Shown in pieces: positions 163 through 7,024 of a stretch of 64,000 nucleotides of DNA. The stretch is from a virus (lineage: Duplodnaviria > Caudoviricetes): the IMG/VR virus record IMGVR_UViG_3300047557_002530, one strand, 5' to 3'. The position numbers were made by a program, and so were the translations under genes. Position 1 is the stretch's first letter. Each line of letters starts with the position of its first letter. The notes under the pieces are model-generated. The model had not been told where the DNA came from and made no database searches. It saw only the letters and a program-made list of their open reading frames with translations.

Positions 163-483
163 ATGAACGCACAACTTTCGATTGGCGAATGCAAAGTAAT
201 GTGGGTTGTTGGTGCATTGGAACGACTTGCAACTCTTGGTTTGATTGGTCCTGATATTCCTCTGCGACTTTCTGCTAGTGCAGTGGAAGATTATATTCAA
301 ATTGATGAGCACAGGGAGCATCTGTTTGAATCTGATTTTGAAATCATCAATATCTTTACTGAACTTGCTGATACTGAAGATCAAGATCCCGATCAAATTA
401 AACCTATCATTGAACTGCTGATGCAATACAAAAACAATCGTACTGATATTGTAAGGTATGCACTCTCGCACCAACTCACCTGA
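163..483 (+). CDS. hypothetical phage protein
   Basis: 106-aa ORF closely packed with its neighbours on the coding strand. Confidence 0.7.
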   Translation: MNAQLSIGECKVMWVVGALERLATLGLIGPDIPLRLSASAVEDYIQIDEHREHLFESDFEIINIFTELADTEDQDPDQIKPIIELLMQYKNNRTDIVRYALSHQLT

Positions 484-491
484 TTAAAATA

Positions 492-1085
492 ATGCGTCCG
501 AATCTCCAAAAAGTTGTTACTCTCTTTCAACCAGATGTTGATGGTTATTCTGATTGGGTAAGTATTGCTGATGTCCGAAATGTAGGATTGCGTTGGAGTG
601 ATAATGGCAATGCCCGAAGGGGTATTGCCTTTGGGGTGAGTGAATATAATTGGGAGTTCAAGCGAGTGAATAATCGTCGCATTGTTGAAATGCGACTGAA
701 TGGATATAATCAATCTGCTGCATTTAATCAACGTATTCGCAAAGATATTGTTGATGAACTTCGCCAACAAACTAGATCTAACTTTGCTCCTAATTGTATA
801 ATTCCTCTAGTTGATAATGACAAAGAAATAGATCATCGCTGGGGTAGAAAAGATCATCCAAAATATGAATACATCAATGATGTAAATAATCAGAGTATTG
901 ATGATTTTCAACTACTTTCACATAGTCATAATCAATTCAAACGAGAGCAATGTGTGAAATGTAAGAATACTAACCTACGATTTTTACCACCAAACAATCA
1001 AGTATTTAAGATTGGTTGCGAAAAATGGGAAAATGAGGTAGGATGTATGGGGTGTCCTCTTGCTCAACCTGAACTGTATCGGTAA
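492..1085 (+). CDS. NlaIII/IceA1-like HNH-type restriction endonuclease
   Basis: Motif string RLNGYN, FNQRIRKDI, EIDHRWGRKD, DFQLL, N..KR..C..CK.TN and GC.GC...P..YR matches the NlaIII/IceA1 family as I recall it. Confidence 0.75.
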   Translation: MRPNLQKVVTLFQPDVDGYSDWVSIADVRNVGLRWSDNGNARRGIAFGVSEYNWEFKRVNNRRIVEMRLNGYNQSAAFNQRIRKDIVDELRQQTRSNFAPNCIIPLVDNDKEIDHRWGRKDHPKYEYINDVNNQSIDDFQLLSHSHNQFKREQCVKCKNTNLRFLPPNNQVFKIGCEKWENEVGCMGCPLAQPELYR

Positions 1086-1090
1086 ATCTT

Positions 1091-1615
1091 ATGACATTAG
1101 ACAGTGGAAAACTAATGTATTCCGCAGGGAATAATGATGAGTGCTACACGCCGAAATATGGCGTGACGCCAATTCTTAAATATATCTCTGAAAATGCGAT
1201 TGTCTGGTGTCCATTTGATACTGCAGAGAGTGAGTTTGTTAAACAAATTTCTGAGCAAAATCAAGTTATTTACACGCATATCTCATTTGGACAAGATTTT
1301 CTCACATTCACACCTAAGTTTGAGTGGGATGTAATTGTATCCAATCCACCATTCACAAATAAGCGTAAGTTTTTTGAGAGAGCATTATCATTTGAGAAAC
1401 CATTTGCATTGATTATGACTAATACTTGGTTGAATGATAGTGCTCCAAAACAGTTATTCAAGGACAAAGACTTGCAACTATTGATGTTCGATAAGAGAAT
1501 GAAATTCAATAGTCCTGATGGTAGGGCAAATGATAAAATTACTTTTAGTAGTAGTTATTATTGCTGGAACTTTTTGCCGAAGCAGATCATAATGGAAGAA
1601 CTGGAGATAAAGTGA
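1091..1615 (+). CDS. small phage-type DNA N6-adenine methyltransferase
   Basis: DECYTP, VWCPFD (SAM-binding region) and VSNPPF (catalytic motif IV); 174 aa. Confidence 0.8.
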   Translation: MTLDSGKLMYSAGNNDECYTPKYGVTPILKYISENAIVWCPFDTAESEFVKQISEQNQVIYTHISFGQDFLTFTPKFEWDVIVSNPPFTNKRKFFERALSFEKPFALIMTNTWLNDSAPKQLFKDKDLQLLMFDKRMKFNSPDGRANDKITFSSSYYCWNFLPKQIIMEELEIK

Positions 1616-1622
1616 AGTCCTT

Positions 1623-1644
1623 GTGCCACTTGTACTGGTGGCAC
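1623..1644. promoter_or_regulatory. GTGCCAC-N8-GTGGCAC inverted repeat upstream of an early-type gene module
   Basis: Perfect 7-bp inverted repeat in an intergenic gap; related TGGCAC words occur near 4553 and 4694. Confidence 0.45.
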
Positions 1645-1736
1645 ACTAAAAGAGCACAGGGTCCAAATTGTGGTATTCTTAAAGGGTGGAGGGAGCAGGT
1701 CGCACTGTCCCACCTAAGTCCCATTGTTTATTCTTT

Positions 1737-2309
1737 ATGACTTCTTTCACTGTTGTTAAAAAGGGCGAAGAGATTCAGTTTGATTCTTCTTTTGCTGATC
1801 TGAATGAAGCAAAAGAATATCTGAGTCAGCATATGTCTTTTAATGACTTTGCAATGCAACTGGTGGAGAAAAAGAAACTCTCCGAAAAGCAAGTTGCTTG
1901 GGTTCACTATCTTGCAACTCAAAGTGTAATTGATTCTCAAACTCCTGTTGAGTTTGGTCCTTACAAGCAACTTGTGAATAAGATGTATGACACAATGACT
2001 GCTAAAAAGTTTCAGGTGCGACTGCCTGGAATGACTCTAAGCACTGTGAATAAAGGTGCTAACATTGGTTGTGTTTATGTCTTCGAGAACAACAACTATG
2101 TTGGTAAGATTACTTCTACTGGTGATCTGAAAGGTAATGCCAGTGAAGATGTACTGAATATGCTAGAAGATGCAAATGACAATCTTCTGCAACTGGCAAA
2201 GATTTATGGTCATCAGACTGGCACTTGTTCGATTTGTGCTCGCACTCTGAATGATCCTCTCTCCGTGCAAATGGGAATTGGTCCTGTTTGCGCCAAGCGC
2301 CTTGCCTAG
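1737..2309 (+). CDS. DUF6011-like protein with C-terminal Zn-binding motif
   Basis: C-terminus CSICARTLNDPLSVQMGIGPVCAKR. ATG 1737 is preferred over GTG 1686, which lies in promoter-like sequence. Confidence 0.7.
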   Translation: MTSFTVVKKGEEIQFDSSFADLNEAKEYLSQHMSFNDFAMQLVEKKKLSEKQVAWVHYLATQSVIDSQTPVEFGPYKQLVNKMYDTMTAKKFQVRLPGMTLSTVNKGANIGCVYVFENNNYVGKITSTGDLKGNASEDVLNMLEDANDNLLQLAKIYGHQTGTCSICARTLNDPLSVQMGIGPVCAKRLA

Positions 2310-4438: not shown

Positions 4439-4475
4439 AATGTCTATAAATGTCTATAAATGTCTATAAATGTCT
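4439..4475 (+). repeat. AT-rich tandem repeat (AATGTCTATA) x3.7
   Basis: Exact 10-bp units start at 4439, 4449 and 4459, with a partial unit at 4469. Confidence 0.95.
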
Positions 4476-4605: not shown

Positions 4606-4646
4606 AAACCCGTGAGACTCAGTATTTTTATGAGTCTCACGGGTTT
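4606..4646. terminator. perfect 16-bp inverted repeat (terminator or cruciform)
   Basis: AAACCCGTGAGACTCA, 9-nt loop, TGAGTCTCACGGGTTT, then a T-rich tail. Confidence 0.65.
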
Positions 4647-5084: not shown

Positions 5085-5394
5085 TTCGTGATTAGGTGCT
5101 TTCCGTGCCATTGAATTACTTACAATCAATTGCTAAACATAAGAATCAAAAGTTCTTTCGTGTTTAGATAGATTTCGTATGGCTTTTTATAATATCAAAC
5201 AATCACTGAGATAACAACTCAAAGTTTGTTCGTGATTAGATAAGATTCGTACAGAGAATTTATATTTCACCACACTCATCAGAATGTCTTTAAGAATTCA
5301 TTCGTGATTAGATAAGATTCGTATTGATATTGATTCTGATAAACATTTACATGCATTTGTACTTGAAGATGATTCGTTTATAATCAGAGTTCGT
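5085..5394 (+). repeat. five-unit array, exact 72-bp period, core TTCGT-N12-TTCGT
   Basis: Cores start at 5085, 5157, 5229, 5301 and 5373; consensus TTCGTGATTAGATAAGATTCGT; about 50 nt of divergent sequence between cores. Confidence 0.85.
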
Positions 5395-5643: not shown

Positions 5644-5781
5644 TTATTAATACTTAATACCAGTAAGAAACATCGTCTTATAGATGTTTCGTTCATTCTT
5701 TATATACAGTGTTACCTAATAAGAATTAAGTTGTCTGATTATTCTTCTGATTTCGGGCAACTTAATTCTTTATTCTTATTA

Positions 5782-6547: not shown

Positions 6548-7024
6548 ATGCTTTTGTTGGATAGATTTTATGACAAATTGCCAGATATTCTCGATGAAGA
6601 ATCTTGTTGGGAATGGAAAGGAGCAATAGATAGGTATGGATATGGTGCTTTTTCTATTGGAAAAAAGACAGTAAAAGCGCACAGGATATCATACGAAGTT
6701 TTCTATGCAGAACCACTGAATGATCTTTTATGCTTACATAAATGCGACAATCGTAGATGTGTAAATCCTCAACATCTATTTGCAGGAACAAATCTCGATA
6801 ATATGAGAGATAAAGTTCAGAAAAATAGATGTTATAGTGGAGACCAAAAGGGAGAAAATAATGGGGCATCAAAACTTACTGACAATCAGGTAAGAGAAAT
6901 TAGACAATTGTATAATTCTGGAAAATATACAAAATCAAAACTTGGAAAAATGTATAAAGTCCATCGAACTACAATTTATTATATTGTAAATAAAAAAACT
7001 TATAAGCCTATCTTGGAGGGTTAA
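6548..7024 (+). CDS. free-standing HNH homing endonuclease with C-terminal HTH
   Basis: CWEWKG..YG, AHRISY, LHKCDNRRCVNPQHL..GTNLDNMRD (HNH_3-type); C-terminal LTDNQVREIR...LGKMYKVHRTTIYYIV HTH. Confidence 0.9.
   Translation: MLLLDRFYDKLPDILDEESCWEWKGAIDRYGYGAFSIGKKTVKAHRISYEVFYAEPLNDLLCLHKCDNRRCVNPQHLFAGTNLDNMRDKVQKNRCYSGDQKGENNGASKLTDNQVREIRQLYNSGKYTKSKLGKMYKVHRTTIYYIVNKKTYKPILEG

Follow-up and report, generated by a model that had tools for sequence, protein, structure and literature searches.

A predicted type II restriction-modification cassette in a T4-like cyanophage, built around a small, non-classical methyltransferase

Two adjacent genes in a viral DNA stretch of 64,000 nucleotides (hereafter, the window) are best explained as a type II restriction-modification (R-M) cassette, in which a non-classical, minimal methylase would serve interchangeable nucleases; judged from sequence evidence, we give this reading a probability of about 0.72. 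The cassette itself is real and widespread in aquatic cyanophage contigs. Complete R-M systems are familiar from bacteria, temperate phages and chloroviruses; for lytic T4-like phages, commonly credited with orphan methylases alone, reports of them are to our knowledge rare. Our literature search found nothing on the nuclease-methylase pair or on the motif of the methylase. The pair would assign a job to an abundant and mis-annotated phage methylase family (>4000 clusters, including those of P-SSM2 and P-TIM68), with two unrelated nucleases sharing one methylase partner. Furthermore, it offers a way to test directly, with cultured phages, by what means cyanophages break down host DNA or shut out competitors, and both the small methylase lacking a recognition domain and the new ICEA clade are candidate small enzymes, possibly of new specificity.

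The virus record holding the window is linear, 156 kb in length and 74% complete. Its genes include psbA, a Dam-like gene and, near the cassette, one with 83-91% identity to genes of Synechococcus myoviruses (e.g., Bellamy and S-SM2); these features identify the record as a T4-like cyanophage, in agreement with the T4-like source proposed in an earlier note on this DNA. Both open reading frames were found on the plus strand, at the coordinates and with the 5-nt gap described there, and the motifs listed in that note (EIDH..GRKD, DFQLL....N..KR..C..C, GC.GC and NPPF) are all present in the translations. The features of the region, in window coordinates, are the following:

163-483, plus strand: left flanking gene, 106 aa, conserved, function unassigned; outside the cassette, adjoining the DUF6011 gene in empty alleles
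492-1085, plus strand: nuclease (ORF1), 197 aa; ICEA/NlaIII-family HNH endonuclease, modelled with a winged-helix-like part (residues ~1-80) and a His-Me finger (residues ~81-197)
603-617, plus strand: N38-G39-x-x-R42 motif of the winged helix, candidate DNA-reading segment; N38, G39 and R42 90-96% conserved in the broad family
831-836, plus strand: D114-H115, HNH catalytic His and the preceding Asp; 99% conserved in the broad family, invariant in close kin
930-944, plus strand: N147 (predicted metal ligand) and K150-R151; 99%, 99% and 93% conserved
951-1055, plus strand: second zinc site C154/C157...C185/C188; C-terminal CxxC pairs present
1091-1615, plus strand: methylase (ORF2), 174 aa; minimal gamma-type amino-methyltransferase, catalytic domain only
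1205-1219, plus strand: WCPFD, degenerate SAM-binding motif I; invariant in alignment A2, assignment inferred from the fold
1343-1354, plus strand: NPPF, catalytic motif IV; invariant in alignment A2
1619-1736, plus strand: repeated stem-loop and promoter-like element, with a hairpin at 1623-1644 and an extended -10-like sequence TGTGGTATTCT at 1669-1679; right boundary of the insertion
1737-2309, plus strand: right flanking gene (DUF6011), conserved; outside the cassette

Elsewhere in the window, a free-standing HNH_3 endonuclease with a C-terminal HTH is encoded at 6548-7024, and a gene-poor segment at 4.3-5.9 kb contains a perfect 16-bp hairpin and an 18-bp hairpin (4606-4646 and 5721-5770), as well as three copies of a 23-nt repeat spaced 72 nt apart, along with a 10-nt tandem repeat (5157-5323 and 4439-4475).

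ORF1 matched the Pfam family ICEA (PF05315) with 87 bits, well above the curated cut-off of 24 (E 1.8e-24; model positions 7-198 of 218), which bears out the NlaIII/IceA-type assignment made in the earlier note. This family includes the type II enzymes NlaIII and IceA1 (PMC5714182). The AlphaFold model of ORF1 (pLDDT 86) comprises an N-terminal winged-helix-like part, with weak fold matches to MarR/RepE winged helices (residues 1-80), and a C-terminal HNH part with weak fold matches to Cap5, GVE2 HNH, McrA and Endo VII (residues 81-197); the top VIA matches were HNH proteins, at modest Z values of 4.4-5.1, and Foldseek gave nothing at E<=0.001. The N38-G39-x-x-R42 segment likely reads DNA. The first CxxC pair found in many HNH proteins is missing from ORF1, and this first zinc site is reduced in many canonical Helicobacter-type ICEA members too. 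The catalytic residues are invariant over about 125 nuclease clusters, and dN/dS values of 0.08-0.17 against ten relatives indicate that the nuclease is under purifying selection. The ICEA gene was found in no cultured phage, PDB sequence searches returned no relative of the nuclease, the methylase or the PvuII-like partner described below, and NCBIfam and PADLOC yielded weak generic matches only.

Within the ICEA family, the phage nucleases constitute their own group, distant from the IceA1/NlaIII-like clade. The phage nuclease shares 33% identity over 202 aa with an IceA1-like protein, and its winged-helix motif is NGNARRG, in contrast to GNGGSWCR in IceA1/NlaIII-like proteins. The separate clade and the NGNARRG motif thus ruled out membership in the NlaIII/IceA1 isoschizomer clade. 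The latter clade pairs with D12-type methylases of 330-345 aa; a classical D12-type CATG methylase of ~330 aa was considered as the partner here and rejected, as the only D12 gene in the record (74% complete) is Dam-like and lies 65 kb off. Given the distant clade, the other winged-helix motif and the 33% identity, CATG specificity is not simply transferable from NlaIII; nor does the avoidance of CATG, described below, follow the presence of the cassette.

ORF2 matched the DNA methyltransferase family phrog_799 (E 1.9e-34) and shares 79-83% identity with P-SSM2_078 and P-TIM68 gp051, which agrees with the earlier description of a 174-aa methyltransferase with an NPPF motif. Its model best matches the catalytic domain of M.TaqI (Foldseek E 2e-6; VIA Z 11.8, rmsd 2.9 over 143 residues), with motif I preceding the NPPF motif IV on the modelled M.TaqI-like Rossmann SAM fold. 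Residues 18-174 align to M.TaqI 21-225 alone and the protein stops there, so no C-terminal target-recognition domain is present, the model ending where that domain would start. The RNA m6A enzymes PH1948/METTL5 tie structurally with ORF2 (Z 11.6-11.7), and profile searches gave weak EcoRI_methylase and Eco57I matches. ORF2 is therefore a predicted gamma-class m6A DNA methyltransferase, NPPF alone being also compatible with m4C. The C-terminal half of the methylase is near-invariant irrespective of the partner, which suggests, at the sequence level, one methylase specificity across partners. In the 74% of the genome covered by the record, no beta, C5 or T1-Dam methylase and no PF05869 match were found.

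We identified 39 non-redundant phage loci with the nuclease, of which 3 end at the gene, leaving 36 informative. A methylase is located near the nuclease in all 36: the small methylase in 35 (adjacent in 31, one or two genes away in 4) and a beta-class substitute in the remaining one. The check on co-occurrence proposed in the earlier note thus came out in favor of its phage R-M pair with a non-classical small methylase, which is further backed by the co-insertion at an empty site described below, by purifying selection and by pairing in bacteria. At two loci (L129 and L394) the methylase is frameshifted beside an intact nuclease, probably through assembly errors; L394 is a marine phage contig from a long-read assembly, with one GATC in 12 kb. 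In L123 (7377-8135) and L393 (11901-12659), a 252-aa beta-class methylase, 46% identical to a methylase from phi92-like E. coli phages, replaces the small one behind the same ICEA gene and a 417-aa gene. Genes of 310-433 aa separate nuclease from methylase in L021 (8998-10011), L087 (3003-3935), L123 (6134-7387), L125 and L131, one of them with a weak DUF6551 match.

At about 15 loci in relatives, the genes corresponding to 163-483 and 1737-2309 are direct neighbours and both cassette genes are missing, which indicates that nuclease and methylase entered this site together; one of these empty-site relatives is a complete 247-kb genome devoid of either gene. Further, the cassette was found at many different insertion sites. 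Hence, the pair does not behave as a free-standing homing gene, the empty allele lacking both genes and the insertion sites being many, and instead displays the arrangement of a type II R-M system, namely separate nuclease and methylase genes that are linked and co-inherited. In such systems, mutual binding of the R and M proteins is not expected.

The right boundary of the insertion is the element at 1619-1736, which in empty alleles comes straight after the upstream gene. About 8 related copies lie in the accessory region, at 22.8-33.6 kb of the genome, and a simple promoter scan did not flag the element. A copy ~0.9 kb upstream of the window would place the pair in an early operon, with the nuclease first. 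In T4-like phages, promoter/stem-loop elements known as PeSL shuffle accessory genes (PMC2839356, PMC4122927). Both PeSL cassettes and the 1619-1736 element consist of a repeated promoter plus hairpin bounding accessory genes; the sequence of the latter differs, its role in shuffling here is suggested by resemblance, and cyanophages did not turn up in a term search of PMC4122927. By this analogy, the cassette may move among small early-gene modules flanked by repeated promoter/stem-loop elements.

The methylase also keeps other company. The gene in front of the 80 closest methylases mostly encodes a 165-aa protein that matches a PvuII profile weakly (the PvuII-like label refers to Pfam matches below the cut-off, E 0.001-0.002); some of these methylases have a second, divergent ICEA type (37% identity), and some have no nuclease. 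The earlier note missed that the methylase mostly has a PvuII-like partner or stands alone. Of 161 loci with the PvuII-like gene, 154 also have the methylase; the only cultured phages carrying this gene are P-SSM2, P-SSM5 and P-TIM68, and each of them has the methylase too. This 165-aa family (e.g., L002:9507-10004 and P-TIM68 gp050, L082:3463-4008) comprises 1470 clusters, is the commonest partner of the methylase, and is annotated as hypothetical in P-SSM2 and P-TIM68. One locus (L087) carries both ICEA and PvuII-like nucleases. In the methylase tree, partner labels are interleaved: ICEA requires 16 changes, at least 5 of them forced by strong branches, and the nearest relative of the window methylase (92%) is partnered by a PvuII-like nuclease. 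Because this is a short tree that has probably been affected by recombination, only repeated partner exchange is read from it. The methylase family amounts to 4245 clusters versus 125 of the nuclease, and many methylases are orphans, which points to a one-way dependence, where the nuclease needs the methylase and not the reverse. This dependence, together with the co-insertion, the substitution by another methylase class and the intact active sites, is what argues for a type II R-M system.

In bacteria, the methylase is mostly solitary. Nevertheless, in four Campylobacterota genomes the small methylase is immediately followed by an ICEA nuclease from another clade (L143, L150, L158 and L184; chromosomal R-M-like pairs with the motif NGGDWCR), and thus the pairing of ICEA with the small methylase arose more than once. 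The closest non-phage-looking ICEA kin adjoin beta-class methylases; on one bacterial contig (L138:941-3980), a beta methylase and an ICEA nuclease are found with a second, convergent ICEA-like nuclease. In a Nonlabens MAG (L185:802-2734), a gap of 14 nt separates the small methylase from a MutH/Sau3AI-family nuclease upstream. In Mesomycoplasma hyorhinis, a cultured organism where the methylase motif could be read, the homolog lies between gyrA and ligA, where it precedes and overlaps an HNH gene of 421 aa (L319:2375-4292). In Lutibacter and other Flavobacteriaceae (L147-L163, L179), the small methylase is the last gene of a recurring element, following two short conserved genes, with three copies in L. 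agarilyticus.

Regarding the target site, the earlier note held that CATG is not avoided, which is incorrect: CATG is the most under-represented tetramer genome-wide by z-score (Markov O/E 0.36), and its O/E is 0.69 after synonymous-codon shuffling (z -6.4). About 188 CATG sites are left in the genome, so the accompanying argument for a need to protect such sites holds. Depletion also extends to RGCY and almost every 4-bp palindrome. In this genome, the depletion of RGCY (AGCT, GGCC, AGCC/GGCT) equals or exceeds that of CATG; AGCT has a codon-shuffled O/E of 0.21 and hardly occurs in the first 40 kb. CTAG is absent over 40 kb of S-SM2 (L242), and TCGA, CCGG and GGCC over 40 kb of P-TIM68 (L237). 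Motif avoidance was tried as a guide to specificity and failed, CATG being low in every class, in cyanophages without the methylase and in cultured controls. A complete cassette-free relative has a CATG O/E of 0.29, and CATG depletion in ICEA carriers is indistinguishable from that in locally cassette-free relatives (p 0.12-0.33); some carriers retain 0-2 CATG in 10-16 kb, the ICEA carriers L097 and L001 among them. PvuII-like carriers displayed no avoidance of CAGCTG beyond its AGCT core. The seven fragments with a PvuII-like gene but no methylase, each covering a small portion of its genome, retain CATG (O/E 0.38). The median GATC O/E is 0.38 in ICEA carriers versus 0.65 in PvuII-like carriers (p 0.0003), a difference confounded by lineage, as GATC is not reduced in ICEA carriers when these are compared with locally cassette-free relatives (p 0.71). 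Overall, we place roughly even odds on CATG, the site favored by the nuclease family, as the target; it is conceivable but rather improbable that the target is GATC, or else a degenerate site of SAT type that would block both, and we would back some other site just as tentatively.

Other explanations of the pair were weighed against an R-M function. T4-like phages carry many free-standing HNH genes beside genes they exclude, other HNH genes occur in this genome (e.g., that at 6548-7024), the nuclease lies nearly always immediately in front of the methylase, and alleles with just the methylase are frequent; all of this would fit a free-standing endonuclease of the homing or marker-exclusion kind, with a long target, hitch-hiking on a beneficial anti-restriction methylase that gives no protection against it. 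We consider this unlikely, as the two genes came into this site jointly and the methylase, too, is missing from the empty allele, the cassette occupies many different sites, the linkage persists despite one or two intervening genes or replacement by an unrelated beta methylase, and the ICEA family pairs with methylases in bacteria, reversed order included. Similarly low is the probability that the nuclease is a nickase, a weakly active enzyme or a DNA-binding remnant, the methylase alone protecting against host restriction. The missing first HNH zinc site, the winged-helix motif unlike that of NlaIII/IceA1 and the persistence of the remaining CATG sites could be taken in that sense; however, canonical members have a degenerate first zinc site too, the gene is under purifying selection with its catalytic residues invariant across the clusters, and a harmless protein would need no methylase, yet every informative locus has one.

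It is less probable still that the small enzyme is an RNA (tRNA/rRNA) m6A methyltransferase whose linkage has another cause, e.g., anti-defence. Automatic database names do read 'tRNA (adenine-N6)-methyltransferase', and the absent recognition domain and the structural tie with METTL5/PH1948 agree with them. Conversely, M.TaqI tops the Foldseek matches and the weak profile matches are to DNA enzymes (EcoRI_methylase, Eco57I), four kinds of DNA nuclease are found as neighbours (ICEA, PvuII-like, MutH/Sau3AI-like and another HNH), and a beta DNA methylase substitutes for the small enzyme in one lineage.

Under the preferred R-M reading, the methylase would place an N6-methyl group on adenine at a short site in the phage DNA, as suggested by NPPF, the M.TaqI fold and the neighbours, and the nuclease, considering its family and intact catalytic residues, would cut the same site when unmethylated, in host DNA or in co-infecting phage genomes. 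If the host methylates the site, its DNA is immune and a role in host degradation is weakened. If the lineage-wide avoidance of CATG reflects host restriction, the host DNA would be methylated there, and the target would more likely be rival phages. The methylase alone may be useful as anti-restriction, which would account for its many orphan copies, and it would let a phage carry any nuclease that its mark blocks, so that ICEA-type and PvuII-like nucleases swap in the same upstream slot. A bolder extension, which we regard as speculative and probably wrong in this full form, is that the 174-aa methylase without recognition domain constitutes a short-motif or degenerate hub, through which lytic aquatic phages repeatedly exchange unrelated nucleases. 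With the same reservation, the exchanged nucleases would comprise HNH ICEA clades and a PvuII fold, and in bacteria also MutH/Sau3AI-like enzymes, with possibly different sites. If true, this would imply widespread phage-versus-phage or phage-versus-host restriction, which could drive the palindrome avoidance of cyanomyoviruses.

The cassette would operate in the manner of NlaIII/HpyI and of the chlorovirus systems CviAI and CviAII. Among known systems, NlaIII and H. pylori IceA1 (with M.NlaIII and M.HpyI, respectively) resemble the phage pair in nuclease family, HNH residues, C-terminal zinc site and the adjacency of an adenine methylase. They differ in that their partner is a 330-345-aa D12-type enzyme instead of a 174-aa gamma-type one, and the phage nuclease belongs to a distant, separate clade with another winged-helix motif, is carried by a lytic phage and may have a specificity other than CATG. 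The phrog_799 members P-SSM2_078, P-TIM68 gp051 and phiYS40_029 are of the same family as ORF2 and are annotated as solitary, a role as M partner being unrecognised, although P-TIM68 and P-SSM2 do carry a PvuII-like partner. The minimal phage Dam enzymes (T1, HP1; PF05869) are of similar size, with an NPP(Y/F) motif and no separate recognition domain; unlike the product of ORF2, they are GATC orphans, and this genome has no match to their profile. Chlorovirus PBCV-1 is a eukaryotic virus, and its R-M enzyme families differ from those of the phage pair. It encodes GATC (CviAI) and CATG (CviAII) R-M systems and methylates its own genome (PMC7248222). Thus, PBCV-1 is likewise a lytic virus of an aquatic phototroph with its own nucleases and m6A methylases, the phage pair being predicted from sequence; whereas PBCV-1 has one methylase per nuclease, the phage cassette would use one methylase for several nucleases.
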